Positions 1,738 to 27,354 of a stretch of 64,000 nt of DNA are shown piece after piece. How positions within the stretch are numbered: the first letter of the stretch is position 1; every line of letters begins with the position of its first letter. This stretch comes from Geosiphon pyriformis uo1. Lineage: Eukaryota; Fungi; Glomeromycota. Both the position numbers and the translations under genes were made by a program. The stretch is from contig JAAOMT010000231.1 in assembly GCA_016748015.1 (NCBI GenBank), positions 261,683 through 325,682 on the forward strand. Direction: 5' to 3'. The notes beneath the pieces are model-generated. The model made no database searches. It was not told the DNA's origin and saw only the letters and a program-made list of their open reading frames with translations.

Positions 1738-2102
1738 ATTAGTACTATAATAACATAAATCTGTTTTTTAACTAATTATACAAAAAAAATTATTATTTTT
1801 CAAGTTAATATTAATAAAAAACTTGTTTTTAAAAATTTAAAATAGTTTAAACTAAAATTATTTTATTTAAAAATTAGGTTTAATAATTAATTAAAAAAAC
1901 TTTACTTTAATTTATAATTAACAATTTTTATTAAAAAACTATAATAAAACTATATTATTTAATATATATATATTATATAATAAAAAACTTCTTTCTCTCT
2001 TACCTTTACAAATCCCCAAAAAGTGCATTTTCTGAAAAAAAAGTTTTTTGTTTTTTTTTAGTCTATATCAATATTTCTTTACCTAATAGTAACCCATTTT
2101 TT

Positions 2103-4705: not shown

Positions 4706-5477
4706 TGTTACAGGGGATTATTTCTGTTGTTGAAATAAATAACAACCTGTAACTTGGTGCTTGTGAAGCTACTTCCGTTGATAAGGTTCTGCGAGTATTG
4801 TATCTGAAAATTTTGATGGAGTCCTTTGTATAATGAACAGAGATTCAATAGTTGTTTTATCCGTAGCTTCCCAGATTCGCAAGTCTGTTAATTTTTTTCT
4901 CAGCTTGGTGGCCGGCAATCCTCTGGTAAGTAATCCGTATCTTCTGTACGTGTTTTACCCTTTTACAGGGGTCTTTTACCAGGCAATCCTTGATGTCAGT
5001 AATCAGTGCTTTTCAATTGATGGGTTAGTGCACAATAATAACTCAAAATAAAATAAAGAAAAATAAGAGAAAATAAAGAAAGAAAAGAAATAAGCCAAGG
5101 TGATTTGAAGATTAGTATTCCATCAATAGCCATGATCAAGAGCTATTGTTCCAGTGTGGTTAAGTATCACTTATTATCAACATGAAGTGTTGATAGTGGA
5201 GAGTAAATTGAGATATAGAATAATTATTTATTTGATGATTTTTGTTTCTAGGCTAAGAATTCTGTGGTATTGATTCTGTCTTTTCTGTTTCTAATACTAC
5301 TGCTATATATACATAATTGAGATTCCTCAATTTCTTGATTTTTCATGACAGGAATCCTAGAATTCCTGGAATCTTGCGATTTCTTTGAGAGAAATCCTGA
5401 AATTCTACATTTACTATGCTTACTTCTGATTGGCTAATAATTATGCTAATATATTTCCTATATTTCTATGAGTAACA
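4706..5477 (-). repeat. 3' LTR of element A (772 bp)
   Basis: Direct repeat of 14989-15760. Confidence 0.95.
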
Positions 5478-5494
5478 TTATTTTTTCCTTTTAA
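5478..5494 (-). promoter_or_regulatory. Polypurine tract of A (decayed by G>A)
   Basis: Minus strand reads AAAAGGAAAAAATAA immediately before the 3' LTR. Confidence 0.7.
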
Positions 5495-6141
5495 TATTGA
5501 GCTCCGTCAAAATCCAACTCATGTAATTCCCTCTCTTGAAGTATTTTTTGGATTTTGTTTTCGAGAATTACTTGTGTTATTTGGGTCTGTACTTCTTCAA
5601 ATTGAGTATTGATGATTTTTCCCAATTGATTACTGGTGACCATATCCATTGCTTTGTTGAGCAATATTTCTGGTTTATCCTAAAATGCTGTGTGTATTTG
5701 GTATATGGCTTGGGCTTGTGTGGATAAGTTGTTCTTTTCCACAAAATGTTCTAATTGTTGTAGTATTCTTTTGTCAAATAATCGCTTTGTTTTATCTGTA
5801 TATAGATTCTGGATATTTATGTGTTGTCCCAAGTAAAAATAACAATAGTTTCTTGGAAATTGTTGTATTCACCAATTCCAAGTTTTTTTAGTCAACTCTT
5901 GATATAGTGACTCTTTTGTCAATTCTTTTATTGCTAATTTTACTTTCGTCATAATTTTGTCTACCGTATCTTCAGTTTTTTTTGGTGTTCTGAGTTGCAA
6001 TGTCTTTTTAGTATCTTGATATCAAATGGTTTGTTGGTTGATTGTAATCTCTATTTTCTGGTGTTGAATTAATTAAAAGAGTTGTTGTGCTAGTGTGTAA
6101 ATGTTGTCTGTAATTTCCATTTTTCTGATATTTTCTGTCAT
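5491..6141 (-). pseudogene. ORF3 of element A (216 aa, unknown helical protein between IN and the PPT)
   Basis: Single frame from ATG 6141 to TAA 5491. Its four internal stops (TAA, TGA, TGA, TAG) are each one C>T away from Gln or Arg codons. Similar to ORF3 of B. Confidence 0.75.
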
Positions 6142-6237
6142 GTCTACTATGTCTTTATATATTCTTTTGATTGATCAATTTAATGTGTTGTTGTTAATAA
6201 TAACTATTGGTTCCAGATCTCATGGAATCTCATCTGG

Positions 6238-7545
6238 TCAGACTAGTATTCTCTGTACTCCTAATTGTGAAATATTACTAGTAGATGGTAGTGTGATGTC
6301 ACGATATGGCTTTAGTTGATCTCTATGTGCTGCTTTGGTTAAAATTTTGTTATCCAATCTTAATTTGTAAGCTCCATTTCCTAGAATTTCTTCTATGTAA
6401 AATGGTCCATCCCATTTGGAGTCAAATTTTTTACTCCATTGTTTTTCCGGTTTGGTACGATATAGTAATACTTTGTCTCTAATCTTGAATTCAACTGGTT
6501 TGTCTGGTAGTTGACTATCATGTCTTTCTTGTGACTTTTGAATATTATTAGCTGCTTTTCTTCGTTTGTTTTCCAATGTTTCCATTAAGTTATATGTTCT
6601 TCTCAGCAATGTTTCTTGAAAATTTTCTTCTGTTATTGGTTTAGCTGGATATGTATTAATTTCTCTCTCTACTGATAATGTTGCTGTTCTCCCATATACT
6701 AATTCAAATGGTGTTGCTTGTGTAGTATCTTGTTTTATTGTCCGATAAACAAATAGTACTGATGATATGAACAAATTCCAATTGTTCTGGTTTTCTTGGC
6801 TGAGCTTAGCTATTGTTTCACACAGTGTTCTATTGAATCTTTCTACTAATCCGTTGGTTTGTGGATGGTATGATGATGATAATGGTCTCTTAATTCCAAA
6901 TCTTTGGCTCAATTCTGTTAATGTTTTGTTCACAAAATAAGTTCCTTGGTCTGATAATAATTCTTTTGGACATCTATGTTGACAAATCAAATCTTGATAA
7001 ACGAATTTGGCAACGGATTCTGCATCCGCTCTTTGAATTGCTTTTGCCTCTGACCATTTAGTGAGATAATTCATAGCTACCACTATGTATCTGTTTCCTC
7101 TGCTGGTAATTGTTAATGGTCTAACTAAATTAATTCCAATACGGTCAAATGGTTGTTCCACTTTGATTGGTCTTAATGGTTCACTGGGTCTTGTTCCTTC
7201 TCTTCGCTGACAAACATCACAATTTTGAACATATTGAATAATGTCTGGGTACATTGATGGCCAATAATATCTCTTTCTGGTTTTTTCTATGATTGCTTCT
7301 TTGTAAAAATGTCCTGTTGTTGGATTTGAGTGCATGTTGAATAATATTGTCTTTTTTTCTGGCTCCGTAATTACTCTGGTTGGTTGATCTGGATCCCTTC
7401 TATTTTTCCGATAAAGTATATTTTGGTAAGTGATAAAATATTTTGATTGTTGTTTGATACTCTTTTGTTCCGTTTGAGATAAATTCTTCTTAAACTGTTG
7501 AGTGTTTATATAATATTGCAATTGTTGATATTTTTGTATGTTCAT
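6238..7545 (-). CDS. Integrase of element A (HHCC, DDE core, GPY/F; no chromodomain); first catalytic Asp is now Asn
   Basis: HSNPTTGH...CDVCQ; GINL, LSDQG, YHPQTNGLVERFN; WDGPFYI. Confidence 0.9.
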   Translation of the reverse strand: MNIQKYQQLQYYINTQQFKKNLSQTEQKSIKQQSKYFITYQNILYRKNRRDPDQPTRVITEPEKKTILFNMHSNPTTGHFYKEAIIEKTRKRYYWPSMYPDIIQYVQNCDVCQRREGTRPSEPLRPIKVEQPFDRIGINLVRPLTITSRGNRYIVVAMNYLTKWSEAKAIQRADAESVAKFVYQDLICQHRCPKELLSDQGTYFVNKTLTELSQRFGIKRPLSSSYHPQTNGLVERFNRTLCETIAKLSQENQNNWNLFISSVLFVYRTIKQDTTQATPFELVYGRTATLSVEREINTYPAKPITEENFQETLLRRTYNLMETLENKRRKAANNIQKSQERHDSQLPDKPVEFKIRDKVLLYRTKPEKQWSKKFDSKWDGPFYIEEILGNGAYKLRLDNKILTKAAHRDQLKPYRDITLPSTSNISQLGVQRILV

Positions 7546-8741
7546 CTTTTATTGTATTTTTCTGTTGGTATTGTTCTGGTTTTGTTATATTTTTGGGTTG
7601 AAATGTTCTTAGATTTGTTTTATTCACAATAAACCATCTGCATCTCCGTTGTCTTTTCCTTTTTTATAATGTATAGTATACTTATATGGTGCGAGTACCA
7701 TTTTCTATCTTGACTGTTTTCTATCTCCAAATTCTTGTTTTTGAAGTGATGTTAATTCTTTGTGATCTGTGTATATCTCAAACTTCTGGCTCAAATATTC
7801 TTTCCATTTCATAACTGACCAGTATATTGCTAAGTGTTCTTTTTCCAGTGTTCCATAGTTCTTTTCGGCCAGTGTTAAACCTCTGTTGGCATATGTCACT
7901 GGATGTTCTCTGCCATCTGGTCCTCTTTGAGATAGTACTGCTTCTAATGCCTGGCCGGATGCATCTATGGTGATGATAAATGGTTTGCTGTGATCTGGAT
8001 AAATCAGTACTGGAGCTTGTATAAGCTTTCTTTTTAGAATATCAAAAGCTTCTTGTTGACTTTCAGTCCATTCATATTTTGTATCTTTGTTTTGCAGTTG
8101 GTTGAGTGGCTGTGCTATTTTGGAAAAGTTCTTGATAAAATGTCGATAGTAGCTGGCGAATCTCAAGAATGATTTCAGTTCTGTCATATTGATCGGCACT
8201 GGAAAGTTCTTTACTATCTTTATTTTCTCTGGATCCGTTTTGATGCTGTCTTTGCTGACTATGTGTTCCAAGAATTTTAGTTCTGTCTTGTCGAAGAAGC
8301 ACTTTGTTGCATTTAACTTTAGTCCTATTCTTCTTAGTCTTTCGAACACTTGTTGAAGATGATGAAGATGATCATCAAATGTTTTTGAGAATACATTGGT
8401 GTTGTCCAAGTATACAACTACTGATTTCCACAATAAGCCAGTATAAACGATTTCCATTAGCCATTGGAAAGTTGCTGGAGCATTGGTTAAGCTGAATGAC
8501 ATCACTTCAAATTTGAAATTCCCTTCTCTAGTAGTAAATGCCATCTTTTTTTTGTCAGTTGGATTCATGACTACTTGCTAGTAACCACTGTCCAAATCTA
8601 ATGTTGAGAATCATTTGTTCCCACCAAAAGCATCAAATAATTCTTGTATTTGTGGAGTTAGATAACTGTCTTCACAAGTTACACCATTGAGTTTTCTGTA
8701 GTCTACACAAAACTGGATTTTTCTATTCTTCTTATAGACAA

Positions 8742-9726
8742 TGTTACCAGACGAAATTAGAGATATTATTTAGCATAAAATTATGTTATAATTCCTATCA
8801 TTAATTAGCATATATTATCGTTTCAAATAATCACTTATTACATTAGCAAAAAAATGTCCGAAATTATCATTTAATTTCTAACCCAAATTGTACACAACAC
8901 AAATGTAACCTAATTGCAATGATCAATCATGCAATACCCTGAACTATGTAACATTCAGAAGTTTGCCAAAATTTGTAGAAATTTGCCGAAATAATTGATA
9001 GTTCACCAAAATATCTAATAGTTCGCCGAAATAACTTGTAGTTTGCTGAAATGTATCTTTAGTTCAGCGAAATTGTAGAAAATAGCAAAGTTCAAGTTCA
9101 TAGAATAGTATTATAACAAGTTGTATAAAAGAAGAGCTTCTCTCTTTGAGAAAATATATCTTATTTTAGATTTATCACTTAGAACTATTCCTATACACAC
9201 AAAAAGAAATAAATATTAAATAATTTGAAAAAACCAAGTTCTTTAATTATTGCACTTGGAAAATTTCCAAAACCCAATTAATATTTCGAAATTGATTAGC
9301 TACCAATTTCAGTAAACTGTTAGTGACTCCAGGCCTGGATAGAAAACGTTTCCCCTGATAAAATTCTATTTCTTTTACACTTCTTTTAATTTTTTTTCTT
9401 TTCTTATTACAATTATTAAGGTAGCCTACAGATGAGATTTCTGTAGAAGAGTTGACTTTCACAGCAAAGTAACTACACATTTTTAGTGAGCTTCCAGACA
9501 AGCAATTCCTGAGAAAGAGTTGACATTTATTACAACGTAACTACATAAAGCAACTGGCACGGAATTGGCCATTCCATTCATAAGCCCAGCAAGTTCAAAA
9601 TTATAAGAGATAATTTGAAGTTAAAAATTCAGTCACTGGAGGTTCAACCACACCCAGGAAACGTAAATTCACAGCAAATAAGTATTAACAACATTACAGA
9701 AAAGAGACCAAAAATCTCCGGTAACA
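8742..9726 (+). mobile_element. Solo LTR (985 bp) of the element-B family, inserted in the RT of element A
   Basis: Closely matches 17945-18925 with small indels; TGTTACCAGA...TCCGGTAACA; flanks ACAA/ATGA. Confidence 0.95.
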
Positions 9727-10429
9727 ATGAGTACCACTGGTGATGACCATGAACTTATTGATGGTTGAATTAGCTCATTGTCAAGCATTCTGTTTATTTC
9801 TTGACGAATGATTTTGTGGCTGGCTGGTGGCACTTTGTATGCTTTTTGTTTGATTGGCATTGCATCTCCAGTCTTGATCTGATGCTGGATGATATCAGTT
9901 TGGCCAAACTCATTTTTGCTGGCAAAGATGTCATTAAAATTGTTGAGTAATATCTTGAGCTGCATACATTGGAGTAGATCTAAGTTTCCTATGTTTATTT
10001 GTTCCAATTGTTTTGGTTAGAACAAATAACATTCATCTCATCTATAGATTGTTTATGATGTGATGTCAACATATCCACAAAGTTGTGGAAAGTTTGGAAT
10101 GGGGTTTGGTGGTTGGTCTTCTATTTCTGTGGTTATATATCCGATGATGGTTTCTTTTGATATGTTGATGACATTACCAGTGTTGTTGTAGATAGAAATT
10201 TTTATGCTGTTATAGCTTTTGGCTGGTATGTGGAGATTGATCAACCCAATCTCTCCTGATGCACAAAAGTTTGCTTCAGCTTCAAAAATTTGTCCTTGCT
10301 TCTTTTCTTTCCTTCCTATTGTTAGCATATACTGGCTATATGGTAGAATGAAAATAGCTTGACTGGTTGAGATAATTTCTCCTTGGCCAACAATTTCTTC
10401 CTCCGCCATATTAACTGGTACATCTATTC

Positions 10430-10830
10430 TACTTATTAATCTGAATCCCTGTATTCCTCTTGCTGTTATTCCTAATTCCTCTCTTTTTCCCACTGATACT
10501 AACTGAGCTACTCTAACCAGAGGCAGGAATATTGCCTGTGCTATTTTTTTGTTGGGCTCTATTATGTAGGCTTTTTTTGAGTCATTTTGTAGCATAGCAA
10601 TGATATTTCCTACATATCCCATGTCAATTATTTCTCCTCTTATATTGATCCCTCTTTTCGCTAAACTACTCCTAGATGCTAATTGAACCATTGTTGTTGC
10701 TAGAATTTCTAGTGCTATTTTCAGATCAATGTAGGTGCGTGAATGTGGTTCCAATTTGATGGCATCTTTTTCTGGATATCTCAGATCAAATCTTGCATCC
10801 ATATCATGCACACGTTCTGGCATAATACTC
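10430..10830 (-). pseudogene. dUTPase domain of element A
   Basis: Five trimeric-dUTPase motifs in order: ARFDL, SRSSLA, IIDMGYVGNI, KIAQAI, RGIQGF. Confidence 0.92.
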
Positions 10831-13800
10831 TCTCCATTGTCACTATACCATTTCAACTCTTGTTCTTTGGAGAGATCTGGTAGTGCAATGTATTGTTCAT
10901 GGTTTAAATCGGAGTTTAAATCTGAGTTTGAATTGTTTTTGTTGTCATTGCTATTTTGAACAGAGCTGGAACCGATGTTTTTGTTGTTGGCATCGGAGTC
11001 TGGATCACGATTGATCAGTGATTCTGATTCCAATGCACAGCTGCTGATTGGTTCTTCTTTTTCAGAGATCGAGTAGATTATGCATGGTGGTAGATTGTAA
11101 AGGAGATCACAATCGTTACAATATTCAAAGTTACTGGAAATTAAACAATGGTGACACAGTCTTGTATTCAACTATGCTAGCCGTTGTTCTTGCTCTTCTC
11201 TAGTGAGTGCCAAGTTTTGGTAGTGTTCATAAAACTCTTCGGGTTCCAGAGAATTTATGACTGGTTCTGCATTCCAGTCAAGCTTAATGGGTTCTGATGG
11301 GTTGTTTTTGATTTCTCTGATCTCTTCGGGTGTTGCTCCTTCTATTTTGGTGATTGTCATTCTCCACAATTTGTCATCGTCGTGTGGACAACTGTTCAGT
11401 TGCTGCACGGCTCTTTTCTAGGCCACTTTTATTGGGGTTCTTTTCCTTATCCAGTTGCTTATTAAATTGTGTATTGACACGACACATCGCATGTTCTTCC
11501 ATATCCTGAAATGTCGTTCCACATCCCTTCATCTAGTAAGATCTCCCCACAAGCGAGACAAGGTTGGTTATCCCATTTTCCTTGCCTCTTTGGTCATCCA
11601 AAGCATTCGAGTAAGCATAAACAACAGTAAAACTTTGTTACGGTGTGGTATTCCTCATTGTCATCACAGCATGCACCCATTGATGACAGTTTCTTGCCAC
11701 AATCGATGCATACTAGTCTTGGCCATCAATAATTGGATTGTTGTGGAGTGTGGTGGGTGTAAGAATTATAACTGTCGGTCGTTAGTAGCATTCTTTCTTT
11801 TTTTTCTTTTCCTTTTCCCTTATCTTCATTCCATTCCCAACTTGAGACTTCTTCTTGTTTGTTATTGGTTCAAGTCAGATTGTTGGTTTCCCAGATAAGT
11901 TCCTCTTTTTGCTTTCCTTTGGGGTTGTCGTCCCATGATAGTACTGGTAGTAGCTTATAGTGGTCTTTGTCGTTGGTTCCAGTGTCAATAGTGGTTTCAC
12001 AGGTAGGTTCTTTTCCTTGCTTCTCTTTTCCGTTGTTATTGTCGTCCCAGGCGAGTATTGGCAGCAGTTTGTTGTGGTCGGCGTCAGCCCATGAGACTTG
12101 GTATGCTTCCCAGGTAAGTTTCTCTTTCTTCTTCTCCAGTTCGATCAATAGTTTCTCTTTTGGAGGAGTCTTGAAATGGCCACATGTGGCTGGTACACAT
12201 ATGTGTCAGCTCTGATATGTTAGCTGGAGTTCCTGGGTGTTTTAATCTAATGTCGTATTGACTTTGAATAGCCAGTCATTACCAACGAGAGCTTGGTATT
12301 GAGTGGCTTCCATCACTAAAACTTTAATGGGAGTTACAATACCATTAACTTCAAAAGGAAAGTTGTCGATTTTGCCAATTAGAGTTTTGGTTACTCCATC
12401 GGCTGTGATAATTCTGGCGCTGGCGGCTCGATCAACTTGGTGACCTAATTGATTCATGAGTTGTCATGTGATGATACTGCCTGCTGAACCACTATTGAGA
12501 ATCAATTTGATGGATTGATCATTAACCTTAGCATCTGTGTACATTGCAGTGATGGATTTTTCATCAAGAGTGGCTCCACTAAATAATAGTGTACTTGACG
12601 GTTCTTCGATCTCGAATGAGAAGATAGTGGCTAGTGATTCATTGTTGGTAACTGTTGCTGATGGAATATTGCTGGTAAGTGTTTGTTGTTTTTGGGTAGG
12701 TTCTTGGTTGCTAGTTGAGACGTCTTCTGAGGTAACCAGAAGACTTAAATAGTGTTGGAAAGTCGGATTTTGGGTGGGGCCTGTACCTGAATTCCGAGAA
12801 CAGGGTCCTAAGCTCTGGTAAGAGGAGCTGGGGACCAGTTAATGAACAACCATCGCCGATCTTCAATTTTGAGCAATTCTGGGTCTTGGGTTTCCTGATG
12901 TCATTATAGCTGAGTTTTGAAGTGGTGTTTGGATTGATGGTTGAGACCGATAAATTATTTGGGGCTGTGGCTGATAAATTACTGGAGGCTGCTGTTAATA
13001 AATTGAAGATTGATATACTGGCAGTTGATAGATTGGTTGCTGTGTCATTGGCAGGTAAATATTTTGATATTGGTCTTGATCTTGATTCGGATAATGATTC
13101 GGAGTTTAGAACTGGCGATCAGGATTTCTGTATTGATTTCTCGATTGTTGGTTGCTATAAGTATGGCAATTAACTCGAATATGGTCTTGTTTACCACAGT
13201 TGTGGCAGACATGCATTTCCGGCTGCCATGGTAGACTAGGTGCAGTCAAGAATGATGACCATGATTGATTTTGGAAACAATTCACGTTTCCTGAATTATG
13301 GTGTCATTGTGGTGTTTAATATATGGTGCGATTGTCAGCTAAGTATCCCTTTAGTTTCTGATTAATTGACTCACTGAATTGTTTCAGTTTGGAGTCCAAT
13401 TCAGATGATCCATTCATTACTAAGTTTACTGCTTGGGCGTGGTTGGCTTCTAACTCAGCTGCTTTAAAATCTCTGGCATGTGTAACTGCAGTAGGGAGGT
13501 CAACTGGATGCATTAGATGTATTCGCTGAAGGAGGTTACTGCACAAACCTCTAATAAATTGATTTAAAATCTGTGGTACTGTAAAATAGTCAGCTTGAAT
13601 TGCTTGGATCTGGCATAGGTTTTTATGGAATCATTCTAGATAAGTAGTGACTGCTTCAGTATCTCCTTGTTTAATGGTGGTGAAAAGGTTGGCTAATTTG
13701 TTAATACTATTATTGTTGCTGAAATATCTTACAAATTCCATCTTGAAGTCATTAAAGTTTTGGGATTTGACAGCTAGACTTTGATACCATGCATCCAGTG

Positions 13801-14969
13801 TGTTCTTTAAAAAGTATGGGATGGCTTGAAGTGCTCGGGCGTTATTCCATCCATTTGCAGTGATGGCTTTTTCTATGTTATTCAGCCATATTTGCACGTT
13901 GTCTTCTTCGCCAGTAAAGTTGTCAAGTTTTGCGATTGGTGTGTAGGCCATTGGATCTAAGTTGGGTTGTTGTGGTGGCTGTTAAAGTGGTTGTTGTTGT
14001 ACTGGTTGTTGGGATGGTAGTTAAAATGGCTGTTGTATGGGTTCGGCTACTGGATTAATCAGCAGTTGATCGATGATAATTACTGGAGGTAAGTTTTGCT
14101 GATTACTTAATTCAGGGTTTGGATTGTTCTGTCTTTGATGATTCGGGATTTCAATTTCCGAATTTTTTAGATTTAAACTTTGCTGAGCTTGAAAATTCAG
14201 GGTTTCAACTTCCGGGTTTTTAGTGATTGAGTTTTGATAAGTAAATTCTTAATCTTCCGATTCTTTTTCCTCTTCTTCTTCAGATAGTTCCCACAGGATA
14301 GCAATTCCAAAGTCTAGTTGAGGTGGCGGTAATCGAATTCCTGATGGAGTTGGTGATCATGATTTAAATCCTTCAAAATACACTCTATATGGCCCTAGTA
14401 AATCTTCTTTCCATTGTTTGCTTTGAAACTGGAATCTTCCAACTGTTAATATTGCGTTTGAGATGGATGCATCTGCTGATGAGATGTTGATAGTGCTTCC
14501 AGGTATGTAGTGATATAATGGAGCAGTTGGTGATTCTACTCTGTGCTTCTTCCAACTAGGTAACTGTATTCCTTTTGGTGTTGCTGCTGGTGTTTGTATT
14601 CTTCCTTTACCTTTGTCTGCGTAGGTAATAGGAAATTGTTGTTGAGTGTATCTTTCAATAGTCTAGTTGATTTCTCTGATTATTGGTGCAAAACTATAGT
14701 TTCTTGGTAAGTTGGTGTGTTGGAATAATTCTGTGTAAAAGTTTTTTCTTGCTGCTTCAATGTTAACTGTTCCTCCTAAGCATTCAGTGATTTTGTTGTT
14801 GACGTAAAAGTTAAAGACTGATTCAGCTGGGTAATGATTACTATTTAATCTTAATTGTTGGCTGTATTGTTGAAACAAGAATTTCACAAATCCTAAATGG
14901 TTTGCTCCTATATTTTCTGATTCTGCCATGTTTAGATTTGGATTGGTGCTGGTTCTCTGTAGGATTATA

Positions 14970-14986
14970 CCTCACAGGAAGCACCA
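14970..14986 (-). promoter_or_regulatory. Primer-binding site of A (TGGTGCTTCCTGTGAGG); possibly elongator tRNA-Met
   Basis: Starts 2 nt inside the 5' LTR. The complement CCTCAC-AGGAAGC-A-CCA looks like a tRNA T-stem plus acceptor end. The tRNA identity is an inference. Confidence 0.8.
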
Positions 14987-14988
14987 AA

Positions 14989-15760
14989 TGTTACAGGGGA
15001 TTATTTCTGCTGTTGAAGTAAATAACAACCTGTAACTTGGTGCTCATGAAGCTACTTCCGTTGATGAGGTTCTACAAGCATTGTATCTAAAGATTTTGAA
15101 TGAGTTTTTTGTATAATAGACAGAGATTCAATAGTTGTTTTATCCGTAGCTTCCCAGACTCACAAGTCTGTCAATTTTTTTCTCGGCTTGGTGGCCAGCA
15201 ATCTTCTAGTAAGTAATCCATATCTTTTGTATGTGTCCTACTCTCTCACATGAGTCTTTTACCAGACAATCTTTGATGTCAGTAATCAGCACTTTTCAAT
15301 CAATGGGTTAGTGCACAATAATAACTCAAAAAAAAATAAAAAAAAATAAGAGAAAATAAAGAAAGAAAAGAAATAAGTCAAGGCAATTTGTAGATTAGTA
15401 TTCCGTCAATAGCCGTGATTAAGAGCTATTGTTCTAGTGTGGTTAAGTATCACTTATTATCAACATGAAGTGTTGATAATGGAGAGTAGATTGAGATATG
15501 AAATAATTATTTATTTGATGATTTTTGTTTTTAGGCTAAGGATTCTGTGGTATCAATTCTGTTTTTTCTGTTTCTAATACTACCACTATATAAACATAAT
15601 TGAGATTCCTTAATTCCTCAATTCTTCATGACAGGAATTCTGGAATTCCTGGAATTCTGTGATTCCTTTGAGAAGAATCCTGGAATTCTACATTTACTAC
15701 ACTTACTTCTGATTGGCTAATAATTATACTAATATATTTCCTATATTTCTATGAGTAACA
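14989..15760 (-). repeat. 5' LTR of element A (772 bp)
   Basis: Direct repeat of 4706-5477; followed on the minus strand by the PBS. Confidence 0.95.
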
Positions 15761-17944
15761 ATAGCATAAGCAGGCCAATAGGGACAAATGGAAGTTCAAA
15801 ATTAAGTCAGCTAGTGATGATCAATGATTGCAATTCAAGGAGTGTTTTTTTAGTGAATTTCAGTTGAAATCTATGGACTTTAATGTCACAAAAAAAGATG
15901 GTAATTTAGATAAAATGTGAGACATTCTTAGAGAGGTGGTAGTTTGCTCTGCTAATTGAGTATTTTCTAAGTTCTGGTTTAATAATTTTGAGTGTTTAAG
16001 GAATAAGATTTCTTCAAAGTTCTTTAAGCTGGAATTATTAATCTTCAAGCTGGTGAAGAATCTGAGCTTGCATTGGAATCCAGTGGCTAACCGCTTTGTT
16101 GACATCTAGTCTGTTGTTGATTTTGAAAAAGCCTTCATATTTTGCGCCATAGTTGATAATGGTGCTGGTTGTGATACAATTCTTGGCCATTTGTCGAGTG
16201 TCAGAAAAAGATACTGTAGGTCCAAGTATTTTGAATTCAGGAATGCCAGAGATACTGCTATTAGAAAAGCAGTTAACAAGTGCATAGAAAATTTTTGTAC
16301 TAACAAGGGCCATATAATTAAAAGCATTTTAGAACAGCCTTTTTGTAAGGTGGTCCTCAACTATTTGATGGTTGACAATGATTTAGTTTTGAAGCCTAGT
16401 GAAGTTAAATCTACAGTTGACACTATCATGGAGGGTTGGACGAGAAAGTACACAATTCTTGATGTTTTGTCTGCTCGCTGGACTGTCCAGTATGCTCTTC
16501 TGAGTTATGTTGATAATAATGCTTTCTCAAAAGTTATATGCAATATAGGGTCTGATGAATTTCTTCAAGTAGTCAAGTGTTTGTCTAATGATAAGGCTGC
16601 TGGTTTGTCTGGCATTTCTAATGAGCTTTGAAAACATGGTGATGCATGAGTTTTGGGTGGTTTGCTAGATATTCTCAATATGTGTTTGGTGTTGGGTGCA
16701 GTGCCTATTCATTGGAGATGCGCATAGGTGTCTATGATTCTGAAACCATATGATTAGGAGAAAACTCTCACAAACACCAGACTAATTGCTTTGGTTGAAA
16801 CATCCTGGAAGATATTGTCTAAGATATTGTCTAACAGAATCTCTGTGGCTTGTAGTAGGTTTAATGTTCTGTAAGGTGACAATTTCTTGGTTTTGAAAGA
16901 TACATCCACACAGACCCCAATTTTTGCTATTGGTTCGATTGTTGAAGACACTTTGGAGAAAAATAGAGAGCTGTAACTAGTGCTTCAGGACATGTGAAAG
17001 GCATATAATTCTGTTGGGTGGTTTTATCTGCATAATAGTCTGGCTAAAATCAAGAGGTGTCCTCATTTTATTAGGTTTTTTGGTGGCCTACACAATGGCA
17101 GATTCAATCGAATCATGACTGATTTTGGACTTACAGATAGTTATGTCATCCACAATGGTCTAGATCAAGGAGAAGTTTTCTTGCTTTTGTCATAGAGAAT
17201 CTTTTATGATCTTTTGCTCTGCAAGATCAAGCATTGTGGTGATTTATTTGGGTATAGATTGGATTCAAAATTTTTTACTAAATCTGGCAAGCCGGATTTT
17301 AGAGGTGGCTTGACATTTTTTCTGGCTTCTGGGGCTTTTGTGGATGACACAATTTGGATTGGTAATAATATAACTGCTACTCAAAATATTTTAGATATAG
17401 CAAGTAAGTTTTTTGGGATCAATAACATCTTTATCAATACAGATAAGATGGTTGTCATACCCATCAACATAAGAATAGAGAATCCTCGGTTGTTTATAAG
17501 TGGAGCTGCCATTTCAATAGCAAAGAGAAAGGAACCACACAAATACTTGGGTATCTTTTTGTCTACAAATAGTTTTTCTGTATCCAGTCTTGCCAAAGTA
17601 CACTCAGATGTTCGGTTTTTTACCAATCTAATATTAAGAAAGGCCATTTCAGACAAGCAATTTTTGTATTTGGTGTCTGCTTTGCTTCAGTCCATTATTA
17701 GTTACAGAATCTAATTCAGTTATGTTTTGGCACATGTGTGTGAAAAATGGGACAGACTGTTTAGAAAAGAGCTGAAAATCAAGGCCAGCTTACCTAAAGA
17801 TTTCTCTAATAAGGCTTTATATTATCCTGAAATATATGATCTCAAATTTTTTAGCCAATTGCAGACCAAAAATCTATTAGCCAGTGTCATTGGGTTTGTC
17901 AACTCTGATGGTGTCTTTGGCAAGTTGTTCGAGCACAGAGCCAT
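15761..17944 (+). pseudogene. LINE ORF2 part 2: reverse transcriptase
   Basis: KAAGLSGI, TRLIALVETSWKILSKIL, LQDM*KAYNSV, GLDQGEV, FVDDT, KYLGIFL; many premature stops. Confidence 0.9.
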
Positions 17945-18925
17945 TGTTACCAGACAAAATTAGAGATATCATTTAGCATGAAACTATCTCATAATTCCTA
18001 TCATTAATTAGCATATATTATTGTTTCAAATTATCACTTATTACATTAGCAAAAAATGTCTGAAATTATCATTTAATTAATAACTCAAATTGTACATAAC
18101 ACAAATGTAACCTAATTGCAATGATCAATCATGCAATACCCCAAACTATGTAACATTCAAAAATTCGCTGAAATTTATAGAAATTTGCCAAAATAATTGA
18201 TAGTTCACCGAAATATCTAATAGTTTGTAGAAATAACTTGTAGTTCGCCGAAATGTATCTTTAGTTTAGTGAAATTGTAGAAAATAGCAAAGTTCAAGTT
18301 TATAGAATAGTGTTATGACAAGTTGTATAAAAAAAGAGCTTCTCTCTTCGAGAAAATGTATTTTACTTTAGATTTATTTCTTAAAAACCATTCCTATACA
18401 CACAAAAAGAAATAAATATTAAATAATTTGAAAAACCAAATTCTTTAATTATTGTACTTGGAAAATCCCCAAAACCCAACTAACATTTCGAAATTGATTA
18501 GCTACCAATTTCAGTAAACTGTTAGTGACTCCAGGCCTGGATAGAAAACGTTTTTCTTGATAAAATTCCTATTTCTTTTTACATTTCTTTTATTTTTTTT
18601 CTTTTATTATTATAATCATTAGGATAGCCTACAGACGAGATTCTTGTAGAAGAGTTGACTTTCACAACAAAGTAACTACACATTTTTAGTGAGCTTCCAG
18701 ACAAGCAATTCCTGGGAAAGAGTTGACGTTTACTACAACATAATTACATAAAGTAACTGGCAAGGAATTGGCCATTCCACTTATAAGCCCAGCAGTTCAA
18801 ATTATAGGAGATAATTTGAAGATAAATTCAGTTACTGGAGGTTTAACCACATCCAGAAAACGTGAATTCACAGCAAATAAGTATCAACAACATTACAGAA
18901 AAGAGACCAAAAACCTCCAGTAACA
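17945..18925 (+). repeat. 5' LTR of element B (981 bp)
   Basis: Direct repeat of 26374-27354. Confidence 0.95.
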
Positions 18926-18927
18926 TT

Positions 18928-18945
18928 TGGTGCTCTTCCACAGAA
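18928..18945 (+). promoter_or_regulatory. Primer-binding site of B (TGGTGCTCTTCCACAG)
   Basis: TGG begins 2 nt after the 5' LTR; the cognate tRNA was not assigned. Confidence 0.75.
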
Positions 18946-21900
18946 ACAACACAGCAAAAACAACTTTAAAGTGGCGACCACACCAGACACAACAACTCTA
19001 GAGTATTACCAATCAATTTACACCCACTGCAAGCAAAGATTCAACATTCCAGACGGAATTGAAGTTGTCAAGAAATCAGTATACCAATACATTGAAAACC
19101 ACATCAACAATTATCTTTTTGGAAATTACAATATCTCAGAAGTTAGAAGCAACTTTTACAATAATTTAGCACACTATTCACAGTTGGGAACTGAAGACCT
19201 TAATAGTGAAACACTTGCCACTTACTTTCACGAACTTAATTTTAACATTATCAAATACTGTGAAGAAACATATCCAGTGCAGTCTCAATACACTATTGAT
19301 TTTGAATCGAAAACAGAAATAAGCAACAAAGGCAAAAACAAATTAAAGCAATATTCAAGAACCACCCCAAATACTCCAACACTACCAAAAACAACTGCCA
19401 AACATTTACAAACACCTGAACAGAGAACCAGTTCAAAACTTCCACTTATTATCACACCTTTTCCAGCTTCACTTGCACAAGCACAAACACCTAATTCATC
19501 CTTGAATCAATTTGCAAGACCAGAAGATTTTACATCACTCAGAAGTCCCACCAGACAACAAGAACTCCTTCAAACTAGTTCTAATCTCCTTGATTTTCTA
19601 GCTGAAAATCAAAGTGAACACTCTGAGACAGCAGCAAACAAAGAAAACAACTCTGAAATAACCGAAGAAGAATCAATAGACAGTGAAAACGAAGAAGATG
19701 AAATGACAACATATATTGCAAAAATCCCTGAATTCAATGGAGAAGATATTGAGACCAGTCCCCAAGAATGGCTCGACCAAGTTACTAAAGCTGGAGATAC
19801 AAATGGATGGAATGCTGCCAGAATGTTAAGAACAATACCCTACTTTCTTAAAAGAACAGCAGGAAAATGGTTTGAAAACCTTGCTGTCCCATTCAATGAT
19901 TAGAATGCTTTCAAAGCAGCCTTCCTTGAACAGTTTACTGACAATAATACCTCCATTACTTTTCACAATTGTTTTCAAAATATCAAACAAGAACCCTCCG
20001 AATCCGTTATGACTTATATTGGGAAATTCAACAAACTTTTCAGATAGATTTGCCAACTCGAAACAAACAATTATTATTCTGATGCTCAAATCTTGGATCA
20101 ATTTATCGCTGGTCTAAAAAATAAACTAATTAAAAAAGTTCACTCACATGTACCAGAAGATTTAAACTCTGCTATACAGCATGCAAAAAGATATGAAATG
20201 GCCATAGAAGAAGCCAATCATACAAAACTTGTAAATTTGGCAATTGGAAAAACCAGCTCAGCAGCTGAGGAAAAAATTGACCAACTCACAAAGAAGGTTG
20301 AAAACTATTTTACCAACCAACAACAACAACAACTCCAAAGATATCAACCACCCCAAAGACGAAATCAAAATAACTTTGCACCACTTTCCAATAACCAGCC
20401 CTAGAATTGCCATTATTGTGGAATCTTTGGCCACTAGAAAAAAGATTACAGAAAGCTGCAACGAGACCAACAAAATAGGGGTAATCAACGTTACTCTTCA
20501 CCACAGCAATCTTATTATCAACCATCACCACCAGCTTACTATCCACCAAGACTCCAGTACTAAAATAACTATTATCAGCCCACCCCACAATCAATCCAAC
20601 AGCAATACCAACAACCACTCACCCAACATTATCAAGTACCTGCTCGAAGACTGATTACACAAAATCAATTTATACCACAAAACTAATACCAAGTAAACAA
20701 CAGTAGAATCAGTTCGAACAACCAATTGGTTCCCTGAAATACCACTCAAACAAGACCCAACCATTACCATACTCAACCCAGTTATTTAACAATGCCAGAA
20801 GAACAGGATTTTCACTATACTGCACTCTCGGAAGGTAGAGCTGCAGCACAACAACAACAAAACCCTTCTTATAACCACACCATTATTCCACCAGCCCAAA
20901 TTGCTGAAAATGCCAATCTCTCTGATATCTTTCCTTTTGAATTTGAAGCAAATGAATCACCATTCTTGCTTAGCAATGCAGTGGCTAATGAGCAAAAAGC
21001 CATCACTGCAATGTACACAGAAGCTGAAGTAAAAGGAAAGCCAATTCGCTTGATCCTAGACAGTAAATCTGCCAAAAGCATTATTATCTACCAGTTAATG
21101 CAACAGTTGAAAAGAAATGTCGACCGACCAGCTCAAACAGTAATTGTCACTGCTGATGGCATGAAAAAGACCCCAGTAGAAGAAATTAACAATTTTCTAT
21201 TCACTCTTGATGGAATTATCATTCCAGTCAAAGTTCTTGTAATGGACGCACCCCAGTATCAAGCTCTCGTCAGAAATGATTGGCTTCAAGAAGCCAATGC
21301 TAATCTGAATTGGGAAACACAAGAGTTAACAATTTCCTACCAAGGACAACACGCCTGGGTACCTGCCATTTGTGGTACATTCAACAAACGCTCTGAAAAA
21401 GCCCCAGCTTTTGAATTTGAACCGGAAGAAGAAAAACCAATAATCAAAACATTCATGGCTTTTGGATCAACGTCCAACTGGGCCGATGAAACAAAACAAG
21501 AACATTTTACCCCACACACTAAACCCAAAACCTCTGGATGGAATATACCTTACTCAAAACCCGAACCAAGAAAACAACGCCCCTATATTTCCCTTAAATG
21601 TAAGGACTGTCACAAGAAACTATTATCAATGGGAGCCTGCATTTTGCCTGAAGAAGAATATGAGAATCATACTTGTTATTACTACAAGGCTTGCCACAGA
21701 GAGTGATGGGGCCATCTAATAAAAAGGAGTGGAAAATGGGACAACACCTCTTGTTTGACTTGTGGAAAGATGCTACCAGAAGAATGCAATTGGATTGATA
21801 TAGCAATGAGAAGAGGCATCTGCAATCAGACCTGCCAATATGCTTTATCAATTTCAGAAAAAGTAAAAAGAAGAACACCCTTTAATGCAACATACAATAG

Positions 21901-22349
21901 TGCTCTCAACAAACTTTATCACTACTCTTATAATGCCGAGATGATTTTTGACTTAGCAATGGCATTAATTAATGGAGCTACCAAAGAAGATGTTCGTCAA
22001 ATAAAGAAAGCAGAATACATTGAATACACTATGGAATTAGCTGGATTCGATTACGAAGATGAAGTAGAAGTCTACCACCAAATTGCAAGTCACACCTACC
22101 CGACCCAAGAAGCTCAAATTCAACGATTAGAGCAAATGAACATTAGGCTATGTGAAGAATGCATTATGCCTTGCAATGAACAATAGTGTTCTGAATGCTA
22201 TGCTCTTAGTATCCCCTTGCTCAGCGAAAATGATGAGAATAAAATTGAATTCGGAGAACCTGAAGAAACAGAAGAAATTGAAACAACACTTATCTACCTT
22301 ATTGAAAATCAGCCTGCCTTACAACTTAAATACTTCAACAACAACGGAC

Positions 22350-22748
22350 AAGGAATAAAACCCAAAAAAGCACACGAAATTGATGCTGGATATGACCTAA
22401 GATATCCAGGCAAAAATACTCTTGTTCTCAAACCCAAATCTTTCACAAAAATCAACCTCAAAATTGCACTCGAAATCCCGCCAGGAGCAATGGTTCAAAT
22501 CACCTCCCGGTCCTTTCTGGCAAGCAAAAGAATCAATGTCAGAGAAGGAATAATTGATGCTGAATATACTGGAGACATAACAGTAATGCTTCAAAATGAA
22601 ACTGACAAACCATTCAAGATCGAACATGCTGAAAAAATTGCCCAAGCTATTTATCTACTCTTAATCAACATTTCGGGTTTGCAACTAGTCAATTAAAGAG
22701 AACAATTAGGAAAAAGTGATAGAGAAACCCAAGGTTTTGGTTCAACTG
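22350..22748 (+). pseudogene. dUTPase domain of element B
   Basis: AGYDL, SRSFLA, GIIDAEYTGDI, KIAQAI, RETQGFGSTG. Confidence 0.92.
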
Positions 22749-23456
22749 GACGATTCACAGTTCCAGTTAATATAGCTCTTAACACACAGAACGAATCCCA
22801 CCAGATTCTCAGACTTCCACAACTGATTACTATCTCATCCTTTGGAGAACATCCGGAAATCTACATCTGCCCAAAGTCAACAACCACACAACAAATTTTT
22901 GAGTCCAATGAACAAGTTTGCTTGGAACATAATATTTTGATCCCAAATATTTATATTCCAGAAGGAACAAAGAAAGTCCAAGTTACTTTTTACAACCCCA
23001 ATAATCACCCCATAATTTTATTAAATAATTTAGAAATTGGAGTTATTCACAGTAATAAATTTCAACAAGAATTACCCCAAATAGTTCCCAATTTCTCTGA
23101 AATTATTGGACATTCAATACCAAAAACCAACTCAAACTCCAGCTCCGAAAACTACCATGTTGTCATGGAAAAACTATCTTGAATCAACATGGGACAACTT
23201 GAACCACAACAACAGACCCAGCTCAAAGAGCTAATTGCAGAATTTGCTGACATCTTTGCCAAAAACAACAATGACTTAGGAAGAACTGATTTGGTTTAAC
23301 ACCAAATCTATACAGGAGATGCCAAACCAAGACGACAACAAGCCTACTGAGTTGTCCCAGAAAGTCACCAATTTATCCGAGAAGAAGTACAATGGATGCT
23401 TAACAATGGGCTTATTCAACCATCAATGAGCCCATGGGCCTCACCTGTGGTCCTAG

Positions 23457-23900
23457 NNNNNNNNNNNNNNNNNNNNNNNNNNNNNNNNNNNNNNNNNNNN
23501 NNNNNNNNNNNNNNNNNNNNNNNNNNNNNNNNNNNNNNNNNNNNNNNNNNNNNNNNNNNNNNNNNNNNNNNNNNNNNNNNNNNNNNNNNNNNNNNNNNNN
23601 NNNNNNNNNNNNNNNNNNNNNNNNNNNNNNNNNNNNNNNNNNNNNNNNNNNNNNNNNNNNNNNNNNNNNNNNNNNNNNNNNNNNNNNNNNNNNNNNNNNN
23701 NNNNNNNNNNNNNNNNNNNNNNNNNNNNNNNNNNNNNNNNNNNNNNNNNNNNNNNNNNNNNNNNNNNNNNNNNNNNNNNNNNNNNNNNNNNNNNNNNNNN
23801 NNNNNNNNNNNNNNNNNNNNNNNNNNNNNNNNNNNNNNNNNNNNNNNNNNNNNNNNNNNNNNNNNNNNNNNNNNNNNNNNNNNNNNNNNNNNNNNNNNNN
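23457..23900. other. Assembly gap (N), hides the RT core of B
   Basis: Run of N. Confidence 1.
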
Positions 23901-24448
23901 CCAGCTCACTACTAAAAATGTCAAATACAAATGGACAGAAGAACACCAAAATGCCTTCAAGATACTTAAGGAAAAACTCACAACAGCTCCAATCCTTGCC
24001 TACCCAGATTTCAGCAACCGATTCCGGTTAGCAACTGACACCTCTTATACTGTCTTTGGTGCCATCCTATTACAGTTAGATGACAATGAAAATGAGCGAG
24101 TAATTGCTTATGCTAGTAGAACATTAAAGCCAGCTGAAAAAAACTATCCCACAACAGAATTAAAAACCGCAGCAGTAATCTGGGCCTTACATCACTTCAA
24201 CCTTTATCTCAGACCCAAAGAATTCGATATTATCACTGATAATATTGGACTTAAATGGCTTCAAAACAAAAACACCCAGCTGAATACAAAACAAACCCAA
24301 TGGACAGGATTTTTAGCTAATTACTAATATATCGTACACCACAAACCAGGAAAACTCCACACCAACGTTGATTGTCTCTCAAGGATGAGGCAAGATTAGA
24401 AAACAAAACCAACACCCATTTGAATTAACAGCATCAAAACAACAAACA

Positions 24449-25783
24449 ATGAACCCCAAAAACTACAACAATCTCAAACAATATTTAGAGACATTAACAA
24501 TTCCAACAGATTGGTCCCCAGACGAAAAACATTGGTTACAACAACAAGCCAAACAATATTTTCTACACAACAACATTATCTATCATCGAAATTTCAAAAA
24601 CCCAACCAAACCACTCAGATTAATACAAAAACAGGAAAAAGAGACCATTTTATACAATATGCACTTAGATCCTTTATCAGCACACTTTGGAAAAGATAGC
24701 ACCACCCAAAGAACACTAGAATACTACTTTTGGCCTCGAATGAGAAAAAACATTCACGAATATGTCGAATCTTGTGATAGTTGTCAAAGAAGAGAAGGAA
24801 CTCGCTCTACAAAACCTTTAAATCCAATCAAAGTTGGACAGCCTTTTGACAGAGTTGGTATCAATTTAGTCAGACCACTATCTATTACCACTCAAGAAAA
24901 CCATTATATTGCAGTAGCTGTAGACTATCTTACTAAATAGCCTGAAGCCAGAGCCATTTAACGAGCAGATGCAAAATCAGTAGCAAATTTCATCTACAAA
25001 GACATCATTTGTAGACATAAATGTCCAATTGAACTTTTATCCGATCAGGGAACACACTTTGTAAACAACCTGATACAAAAAATTTGTGAATGATTCAGTG
25101 TCAAAAGACCTCTGTCTTTGCCCTACCATCCACAAACAAACGGACTTGTGGAACGTTTTAACAGAACATTATGTGAGTCATTAGCCAAAGTCTCAACCGA
25201 TTTTGGGCAAGAATGGGATCTCTTTATTCCATCAGTGTTACTAGCATATAGGACATTAAAACAAGATACCACGAAACACACACCATTTGATTTAACTTAT
25301 GGAAGGATGGCAACGTTACCAATTAGTTTCACAGTGGAAACATACCCAGCACAACCGATCGATGAAAACAATTTCCAAGAAACACTTCAGCAAAAAGCCT
25401 ACACTCTGCTTAGCACATTGGAAGGAAAACAACAAATAGCAGCCCCCCATATTGAACACTCCCAAGCTCAACAAAAAGAACGGCATGATGACAAATTGCC
25501 TTCAGTCACCAATAAATTCAAAATTGGAAACAAAGTTCTCTTACACAGAACTAAAGCTGAAAAACAATGGAGTGGAAAATTTGAAAATAAATGGGATGGA
25601 CCATTCTTTATCCATGAAGTCCTAGGCAATAGATCATACAAGCTAAGACTTGATGACAAAATCTTAGCAAAAGTTGCACATGAAAATTGTTTGAAACACT
25701 ATCATTCCAAAAACAATCCTGAACCATTAATTCTACAAATTGGTACACATTCCCCTTTGATCAGTCCCGAAGATATTCCCTGA
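24449..25783 (+). pseudogene. Integrase of element B (separate ATG-initiated ORF; internal stops)
   Basis: HLDPLSAH..CDSCQ; GINL; LSDQG; YHPQTNGLVERFN; WDGPFFI. Confidence 0.9.
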
Positions 25784-25924
25784 AACTTAGAATCAATAGT
25801 TGTCATTGAACAACCTTCCAACCTGAATACTTAATTTAATTTTACTAGTTATTCTCTTATAATTTAGAACAATCTCACAAAAACAAAACAAAAATAACAT
25901 AAAAACCCATAAACCAAAAATAAA

Positions 25925-25999
25925 NNNNNNNNNNNNNNNNNNNNNNNNNNNNNNNNNNNNNNNNNNNNNNNNNNNNNNNNNNNNNNNNNNNNNNNNNNN
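25925..25999. other. Assembly gap (N), hides the start of ORF3 of B
   Basis: Run of N. Confidence 1.
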
Positions 26000-26000
26000 A

Positions 26001-26405
26001 TATTCTCCAATCTATAGATATTTTCACATTGGAAAAACACTCTATGAACGGAAACTGGAACTTACAACAGCAAACCTCACAAAAGAAGCTATTCAGAAAC
26101 AACTCCACAACAAATTCAAGACAACAGCCAGATCAACAAACAGTTGCTATAGGCTTAGAGCTGCTCTTAGACTTTATGACCTATTCCACACCTGTAAAAA
26201 CGTACTACAAAACCCAATTTTTCAACCTTTGAAGATTCAATACATTGAAAAGCTCACAGAACTGAAATTTCAACAATTTTCAGACCAAATTTCTTTAATA
26301 ATTTTGGATTATTATCTAGAAATAACAGACAGTACTTGGACTTTGATAGAGCTCAGTCTTGAGGAGGAGATTATGTTACTAGATGAAATTAGAGATATTA
26401 TTTAG
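26001..26405 (+). CDS. ORF3 of element B (C-terminal part; N-terminus lost in the gap)
   Basis: Stop-free frame from the gap edge into the 3' LTR: YRYFHIGKTL...AALRLYDLF...IQYIEKLTELKFQQF. Confidence 0.7.
   Translation, partial: YSPIYRYFHIGKTLYERKLELTTANLTKEAIQKQLHNKFKTTARSTNSCYRLRAALRLYDLFHTCKNVLQNPIFQPLKIQYIEKLTELKFQQFSDQISLIILDYYLEITDSTWTLIELSLEEEIMLLDEIRDII
26361..26373 (+). promoter_or_regulatory. Polypurine tract of B
   Basis: GAGGAGGAGATTA directly before the 3' LTR. Confidence 0.85.
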
Positions 26406-27354
26406 CATGAAACTATCTCATAATTTCTATCATTAATTAGCATATATTATTGTTTCAAATTATCACTTATTACATTAGCAAAGAATGTCCGAAATTATCA
26501 TTTAATTAATAACCCAAATTGTACACAACACAAATGTAACCTAATTGTGATGATCAATCATGCAATACCCCGAACTATGTAACATTCAAAAGTTCACTGA
26601 AATTTATAGAAATTTGCTGAAATAATTGATAGTTCACTGAAATATCTAATAGTTTGTAGAAATAACTTGTAGTTCGCCGAAATGTATCTTTAGTTTAGTG
26701 AAATTGTAGAAAATAGCAAAGTTTAAGTTCATAGAATAGTGTTACGACAAGTTGTATAAAAGAAGAGCTTTTCTCTTCGAAAAAATGTATTTTACTTTAG
26801 ATTTATCTCTTAAAAACCATTCCTATACACACAAAAAGAAATAAATATCAAATAATTCGAAAAACTAAATTCTTTAATTATTGTACTTGGAAAATCCCCA
26901 AAATCCAACTAACATTTCGAAATTGATTAGCTACCAATTTTAGTAAACTGTTATTGACTCCAGGCCTGAATAGAAAACGTTTTCCTTGATAAAATTCCTA
27001 TTTCTTTTTACATTTCTTTTATTTTTTTTCTTTTATTATTATAATCATTAGGATAGCCTACAGACAAAATTCCTGTAGAAGAGTTGACTTTCACAGCAAA
27101 ATAACTACACATTTTTAGTAAGCTTTCAGATGAGCAATTCCTGGGAAAGAGTTGACGTTTACTACAATGTAACTACATAAAGTAACTGGCAAGGAATTGG
27201 CCATTCCACTTATAAGCCCAGCAATTCAAATTATAGAAGATAATTTGAAGATAAATTCAGTTACTGGAGGTTCAACCACATCCAAAAAACGTGAATTCAC
27301 AGCAAATAAGTATCAACAACATTACAGAAAAGAGACCAAAAACCTTCAGTAACA
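26374..27354 (+). repeat. 3' LTR of element B (981 bp)
   Basis: Direct repeat of 17945-18925. Confidence 0.95.

Follow-up and report, generated by a model that had tools for sequence, protein, structure and literature searches.

In the textbook scheme, the integrase (IN) of retrotransposons with long terminal repeats (LTRs) and of retroviruses is made within Pol, packaged and then cut free. Canonical Ty3/gypsy elements (Metaviridae) are described with a Pol that is one protein holding protease (PR), reverse transcriptase (RT), RNase H (RH) and integrase (PMC12440569). In the genome of the fungus Geosiphon pyriformis, 41.2% of which is stated to consist of LTR elements (PMC11952901), we analyzed a 64,000-nucleotide window (contig JAAOMT010000231.1, positions 261,683 to 325,682 of the forward strand; positions below are counted within the window) containing two full-length, decayed elements, A (4706-15760, minus strand) and B (17945-27354, plus strand). 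Like yeast Ty3, both have direct TG...CA LTRs, a primer-binding site (PBS), a polypurine tract (PPT), a short target-site duplication (TSD) and the order gag-PR-RT-RH-IN, and Ty3 Gag-Pol is the best solved relative (E 6e-91 for RT-RH-IN of A and E 3e-28 for its IN). Two families of Ty3/gypsy-type retrotransposons are thus represented, each by a dead copy, and both lack one canonical feature, an integrase within Pol: unlike canonical elements, they encode integrase in a separate, ATG-started frame, which is followed by a third, non-env open reading frame (ORF3).

In A, RH ends at a TAA (7611-7609) followed by a 63-nt A/C-rich spacer with two more in-frame TAA codons and no ATG (stop and spacer, 7546-7611, minus), after which ORF2 (6175-7545, minus) opens with an ATG and encodes an integrase with HHCC, core and SH3/GPF-type end. 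The RH stop of B is a TAG (24397-24399, plus), and a 49-nt spacer (24400-24448, plus), likewise A/C-rich and free of ATG, introduces a +1 frame offset before the ATG-started integrase of ORF2 (24449-25834, plus). Pfam detected no chromodomain at E<=0.01 in either integrase, both of which end about 40 residues past the SH3-type part, where the match to PF24626 was below cut-off. A stop after RH and then an ATG-started integrase without a chromodomain had been proposed for both elements by an earlier inspection of the letters alone (hereafter the sequence-only reading), and both elements bear this out.

Because the RH stop of A and its integrase start at 7545 share a frame, decay needed to be excluded as the source of the split. 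Stops are concentrated in the spacer of A, with three in 21 codons compared to 29 in 2563 coding codons (p about 0.002). The sequence-only reading had named a continuous RH-IN frame in other copies as evidence against itself; among 2114 contigs of other copies, some of which lack 32-42 nt of the spacer, there was no variant at a frequency of at least 12% at any of the three spacer stops. At the B junction, no indel at a frequency of at least 25% was listed among other copies for the +1 offset. As a positive control, a decay stop in the gag of B at 20561 is a sense codon in 99% of the depth, so such reversions are detectable. Two points count against this evidence. A decay stop of A at 7624-7626 likewise has no variant row, contigs there being clipped at a CpG cluster, which makes a missing row weaker evidence, and one sequencing run, X1, may come from the same sample as the window. 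The three spacer stops are covered several times more deeply than the clipped stop.

Relatives of A and B show the same boundary. Methionine begins the integrase in 101 of the 101 homologues that reach the first alignment column, with the other 19 of 120 beginning later; this search was limited to proteins of 239-762 residues, and longer proteins, searched additionally, gave as close matches four eukaryotic gene models and two continuous frames, P0133 and P0136. In the gene model P0132, both the end of RH and the start of IN are missing, as expected of a predicted intron. Named integrase matches, at about 45% identity, come from Rhizophagus and Cetraspora. Among metagenome loci (numbered with L), all 11 close relatives that carry both RH and IN have a stop and then an ATG between them, with gaps of -8 to 727 nt and all three frame offsets. 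The 28 more distant loci comprise 21 that are continuous, six that are broken by lesions and have no start methionine, and one (L051) that is split by an ATGA overlap.

Live elements could still make RH and IN as one polyprotein by readthrough or frameshifting, or the stops could reflect post-insertion decay. Such readings draw on the single frame shared by RT-RH, IN and ORF3 in A, on the derivation of every stop type by C-to-T or G-to-A changes in a setting where 48 of the 49 LTR differences of B are transitions, on the fused relative P0133, and on four NCBI gene models that join RT to IN. Those four models, however, are eukaryotic gene predictions, and the three fixed stops of A, the +1 offset of B, the full set of offsets and varied lengths in relatives and the invariant methionine all argue for separate frames. 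We consider a polyprotein or decay largely refuted and very improbable, and conclude from these comparisons that the RH/IN split is very probably real.

A tree built from RT-RH and IN together places A and B as sisters (SH-aLRT 100) within a group that includes eight split relatives (92.5). With L051 set apart, the split elements grouped as a single clade (support 95) for one choice of taxa and not for another, and an approximately unbiased (AU) test neither rejected nor preferred their monophyly (p 0.48 vs 0.52); the trees are compatible with strict monophyly of the split elements but do not prove it. These trees hold 57 and 39 of about 140 rows, made up of unnamed homologues with no named reference clades. 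RT alone cannot place A, which RT-only trees pair with an outside element. That pairing led us to consider, and set aside, a chimeric origin of its RT; four placements are indistinguishable by the AU test (p 0.43-0.53). P0133 (1023 aa) carries RT, RH, IN and the ORF3 domain in one frame and has an unstable tree position, and its fused form is possibly an ancestral or a re-fused state. Fused (P0133), overlapping (L051, L009, L023) and spaced junctions all occur.

These results support the RH / IN / ORF3 split as an old lineage trait. The sequence-only reading had suggested an old and possibly undescribed lineage with accessory genes, and had counted a cysteine-rich insert and a dUTPase among its shared features. 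Its age gains support from the split in all 11 close relatives with both RH and IN and from the named integrase homologues in Rhizophagus and Cetraspora, and no published description of a separate integrase frame in such elements was found in the full-text literature (subscription journals, Repbase, GyDB and supplements, including the element table of PMC2864245, lay outside this search). The accessory part does not extend to the lineage: A and B have both the dUTPase and the cysteine-rich insert, neither was found in any of the 11 close relatives, and L051 alone among the relatives examined carries a dUTPase. The integrase split followed by ORF3 is general in the lineage, whereas the dUTPase, the cysteine-rich insert and the single gag-pol frame are local.

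Intact relatives share the RH / IN / ORF3 layout, which suggests that integrase is likely translated on its own in this lineage. The reading we tentatively prefer, at close to an even chance, is that in these two families translation of Gag-Pol would stop and then re-initiate at the next AUG to yield IN, with IN and ORF3 as separate frames. One full-length RNA would act as a three-cistron message; the 40S subunit would stay on after the RH stop, cross 49-63 unstructured A/C-rich bases and re-initiate at the IN AUG. Re-initiation would set the levels of integrase and ORF3 apart from that of Gag-Pol, and free integrase would then have to enter the particle by binding RNA or Gag-Pol. We found that 12 of 16 RH-IN spacers are free of ATG (8.0 expected, p=0.003), as are nine of ten IN-ORF3 junctions (5.3 expected, p=0.003; both from dinucleotide shuffles), though these p-values overstate independence because the loci are related. 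In two of the 16 junctions (L004 and L011) the upstream frame is an RH tail on a contig without RH itself. A purine occupies position -3 in 14 of 16 IN starts. Starts overlap stops as ATGA at the RH/IN junction of L051 and the IN/ORF3 junction of L009, and in L023 the ATG lies 8 nt before the end of the stop.

Four relatives carry an in-frame TGA-CTA between PR and RT (L002:870-878, L014:3358-3366, L023:1585-1593 and L089:2879-2887), and CTA follows 20 of the 1708 TGA triplets in these relatives' loci. The sites are close to UGA CUA G, described as a high-readthrough motif (PMC12233894), and are on that resemblance likely readthrough sites. Their placement after PR, and not after gag, is unusual. 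UGA readthrough has reportedly been found in Tca2.

Several observations weigh against re-initiation. Neither A (63 nt) nor B (49 nt) has a start-stop overlap. In L002 and L014 the spacers measure 365 and 727 nt and contain 7 and 12 ATGs, too much for re-initiation by scanning to cross, and the leaky-type stop before RT in four relatives would let few ribosomes reach the RH stop; together these argue against a universal restart. AUG-poor leaders with good start context are, moreover, equally expected of a separate mRNA. This main rival, in which IN and ORF3 come from messages of their own, whether spliced from near the 5' LTR to a spacer acceptor or started at an internal promoter, accounts for the long ATG-containing spacers of L002 and L014 and for those elements whose RT is preceded by a leaky stop. 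The IN ATG has an AG 0 nt (A) and 17 nt (B) 5' of it, some spacers contain branch-like motifs, and the ORF3s of rotifer LTR elements are described as typically expressed from spliced messages (PMC5408684). However, two of 14 spacers lack any AG, the acceptor position is unconserved, and the start-on-stop overlaps of L051, L009 and L023, typical of coupled translation, would not be needed by a gene with its own mRNA. We regard separate messages as a doubtful explanation, and re-initiation as the better one.

In nine loci, a conserved two-helix RNA structure, about 45 nt long, precedes the IN ATG, its end lying between a few and about 30 nt 5' of that codon. It is located at L005:4458-4508 and also occurs in L004, L008, L009, L011, L013, L020, L028 and L086, and the model recovered a tenth locus, L027, from outside the building set. 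An outer helix, a purine-rich internal stretch and an inner helix with a bulged A close on a 3-nt loop. In the alignment, 93.9% of cells are paired, eight of 13 pairs show changes on both sides, and, for four of the five measures used, 0-1 of 500 shuffles equal the observed value; the structure was read off the same sequences as were scored, which favors the pair counts. Neither the window nor any of 12 outgroup loci gave a significant match to the model, and several split relatives are also without the structure; its absence from A and B is a further point against the re-initiation reading. The spacers of A and B fold no better than shuffles, and Rfam gave nothing at gathering level in 4500-27500 or in the hairpin loci. 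Viral contigs contained distant integrases only and no match to the hairpin.

This covarying structure is an argument for internal initiation, in which an RNA element would start IN on the full-length RNA independently of upstream translation, with the unstructured A/C-rich leader serving in A and B and the hairpin in others. Its absence from A, B and several split relatives counts against this, and the hairpin could equally be a signal for restart, packaging or repressor binding, so we consider internal initiation quite unlikely. Overall, we favor re-initiation over, in descending order, a separate mRNA, internal initiation, and recoding or decay.

The second distinguishing feature is ORF3. 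In A it has 216 codons, is in frame with IN and ends at the PPT (5491-6141, minus); it contains four stops compared to 10-15 in the other five frames, which makes it clearly coding. One TGA separates it from IN, so A may carry an IN-ORF3 fusion. In B, its start falls in a gap of Ns, and 134 open codons run through the PPT and 32 nt into the 3' LTR (26001-26405, plus). The sequence-only reading had ORF3 at the PPT in both elements, as we confirm; the frames show no pairwise similarity, however, and B's alone matches the family of the lineage. That family was defined by ten downstream frames of relatives that align with one another and whose profile finds 460 clusters at 50% identity; the refined profile comprises 133 of 150 listed matches. 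Its domain lies 3' of IN in 11 metagenome loci and in L085, and at the end of the fused P0133 (90 bits). ORF3 of B is a member of the family: it scores 17.7 bits against the profile, where 200 shuffles reached 5.4 at most, and hhalign gives it E 3e-4 with a probability of 42%. For A, 56 of 500 shuffles score as high; by eye, its motifs are in register.

A model of the ORF3 family is confidently all-helical (143 aa, pLDDT 91), and the family has a median isoelectric point of 8.8. A membrane-like segment (19-residue hydropathy >1.6) is present in none of 150 homologues, nor in ORF3 of A or B, and this, with the soluble helical model, led us to reject an env membrane fusion glycoprotein of the kind carried by errantiviruses and other env-bearing elements. 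Among 120 members, any given Pfam family matched one at most, and a suspected DUF1016_N-like domain likewise had no Pfam support. A sequence search of the PDB returned ribosomal uS13 at E 0.22 and a summed match to an engineered cytochrome trimer, in which no stretch passed by itself. With Foldseek, neither PDB nor BFVD gave a match at E<=0.001, and the best VIA Z was 5.1. A closterovirus coat protein and a phage translation repressor, proposed by atlas scores of 0.89-0.94 with 112-150 shared features, were unsupported by these fold searches. The least supported of our conclusions is that ORF3, instead of being an envelope protein, may act as a soluble helical helper that binds nucleic acid.

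ORF1 of both elements encodes an N-terminal region (long in A), capsid, Zn knuckle, protease, cysteine-rich insert, dUTPase, RT and RNase H. It spans 7609-14929 (minus) in A, with capsid at 13819-13466, protease at 12535-12248, the cysteine-rich insert at 11112-11710 and dUTPase at 10829-10437, and 18926-24399 (plus) in B, with capsid at 19841-20212, protease at 21020-21340, the insert at 21599-22201 and dUTPase at 22361-22750. Pfam recovers the order gag, PR, dUTPase, RT, RH, IN in both (translations read through stops as X). A and B are most alike in IN (54% identity), less so in RH (41%) and least in those parts from gag to RT that can be aligned (34-36%). The absence of a gag/pol frameshift noted by the sequence-only reading applies to the two copies: gag-pol of B is a single frame from 18881 to a gap of Ns, with 13 in-frame stops, and that of A is single save for a 1-nt shift near 11458 and an inserted solo LTR, with scattered stops. 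No stop position is common to both in the alignment, no in-frame TGACTA was found in gag-to-RT of either, and no start ATG is seen for gag in this copy of B. Across the lineage the statement fails, given the TGA-CTA sites above and a frame change between gag and PR in L017. A 135-codon open frame (12711-13118, minus) overlaps gag of A in another frame, in the Zn knuckle-to-protease part.

The dUTPase between PR and RT matches PF00692 (E 2e-18 in B and 4e-16 in A). The best 120 of 579 matches (E<=0.001) to the region in A are all hypothetical proteins of Geosiphon pyriformis, at 61-81% identity, and the majority residues of 120 Geosiphon copies keep the usual dUTPase motifs. Because these are kept, we infer that the dUTPase would keep uracil out of the cDNA. 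The cysteine-rich insert is about 200 residues long in both elements, with three cysteine clusters (CxxC-type pairs) around a small helical domain in A, and is a local addition, not lineage-wide. It has no Pfam match, and a model of the insert of A (pLDDT 64) has no Foldseek match and a best VIA Z of 5.6, to small helical domains, a comparison that barely tests the zinc-binding parts. About 120 residues between dUTPase and RT (22750-23140, plus; 10430-10100, minus) resemble by eye a second, degenerate, beta-rich dUTPase-like domain, for which Pfam gave no match. Several relatives have a tail of 300-590 residues on RNase H, made up of an acidic stretch and a domain rich in His and Cys (L005:3497-4441, L014:4945-6705, L085:2-943, L004:2-544 and L011:1-348); the two tails scanned had no Pfam match above cut-off, and the Cys/His-rich tail differs from the insert of A and B. 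Contigs L085, L086, L087 and L089 carry fungal-type retrotransposon genes and are filed under bacterial genome assemblies, likely as contamination.

Self-comparison of the window revealed two LTR pairs and one extra LTR. A has a 772-bp 5' LTR (TGTTAC...GTAACA; 14989-15760, minus), a PBS 2 nt past it (14971-14986, minus), a PPT (5478-5491, minus) and a 3' LTR (4706-5477, minus); B has a 981-bp 5' LTR (17945-18925, plus), a PBS (18928-18945, plus), a PPT at about 26360-26373 and just after it a 3' LTR (26374-27354, plus). A solo B-type LTR (8742-9726, plus) is inserted into the RT of A, and gaps of Ns in B affect the RT core (23457-23900) and the start of ORF3 (25925-25999). LTR pairs are 89.8% identical in A (772 bp) and 95.0% in B (981 bp), and since almost all differences are transitions, including 72 of 78 in A, both copies have decayed. 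The sequence-only reading was right that the LTRs of A and B are unrelated, sharing a single 40-bp T-rich patch, and that TGTTAC...GTAACA ends A, B and the solo LTR alike. Its different PBSs hold beyond the first seven bases, TGGTGCT, which are common to both; no tRNA gene was found within the window. The proposed 4-bp TSD is exact in B (CCAT/CCAT), and matches at three of four positions in A (CTAT/CCAT), the fourth differing by a transition, and two of four in the solo LTR, imperfections that fit CpG decay.

Target sites at 4702-4705, 8738-8741 and 17941-17944 (CCAT/CTAT, TCAT/TTGT and CCAT) fit the order pyrimidine-pyrimidine-purine-T; with n=3, this is a hint of preferred targets. A and B appear nested in one decayed LINE-like element (1900-4705, 15761-17944 and 27355-29100, plus), whose endonuclease-, RT- and RNase H-like stretches were called by eye from their motifs, with no confirmation from Pfam. 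The right half of the window is richer in CpG and contains a cytochrome P450 fragment at 48392-48838 (minus; PF00067, E 9e-14), likely a host-gene exon.

What stands out in these elements is the integrase with a frame of its own and the family of ORF3 proteins, the dUTPase being already known. A large, old fungal lineage with its integrase encoded apart raises questions about the translation of that frame, the packaging of the enzyme and the role of ORF3. Pieces of the A and B families are annotated as hundreds of hypothetical host genes, so the layout matters for annotation of arbuscular mycorrhizal genomes. The copies in the window are dead, and intact relatives, which Rhizophagus irregularis also has, are a source of short RNA elements usable in reporters.

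Among known systems, fungal chromoviruses are Ty3/gypsy elements with an SH3/GPF-type integrase end like that of A and B, which differ from them in having no chromodomain, a 4-bp TSD and a split integrase. PosPlaTy3-5 of Postia, elements of Phanerochaete and Tmt1 of Tuber have a dUTPase between PR and RT (PMC2864245, PMC6431247), the same site as in A and B; compared by description only, the accounts mention neither a separate integrase frame nor a cysteine-rich insert. Ylt1-like elements are a further group with which A and B share this dUTPase position. The bdelloid rotifer elements Juno, Vesta and TelKA combine a dUTPase in pol with a third, often non-env ORF at the 3' end, but their ORF3s are described as env-like, GDSL, DEDDy, coiled-coil or membrane proteins, none of which matched the ORF3 of the A/B lineage, and their integrase is treated as part of pol (PMC5408684). 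Stop-restart translation is known from SART1 ORF2, LINE-1 ORF2, victoriviruses and caliciviruses. In these, a downstream AUG lies on or shortly after the upstream stop, as in the overlaps of L051, L009 and L023 and, across 63 nt, in A; they are, however, non-LTR systems, and neither A nor B shows an overlap or, as far as we could see, a restart motif upstream. In caulimoviruses, the last gene drives re-initiation. By analogy, this fungal Ty3/gypsy branch might consist of polycistronic virus-like replicons in which integrase would be loaded in trans, a hairpin or A/C-rich leader would control its start, and ORF3 would bind that RNA for restart or integrase packaging, a likeness we propose as an unlikely extension of the comparison.

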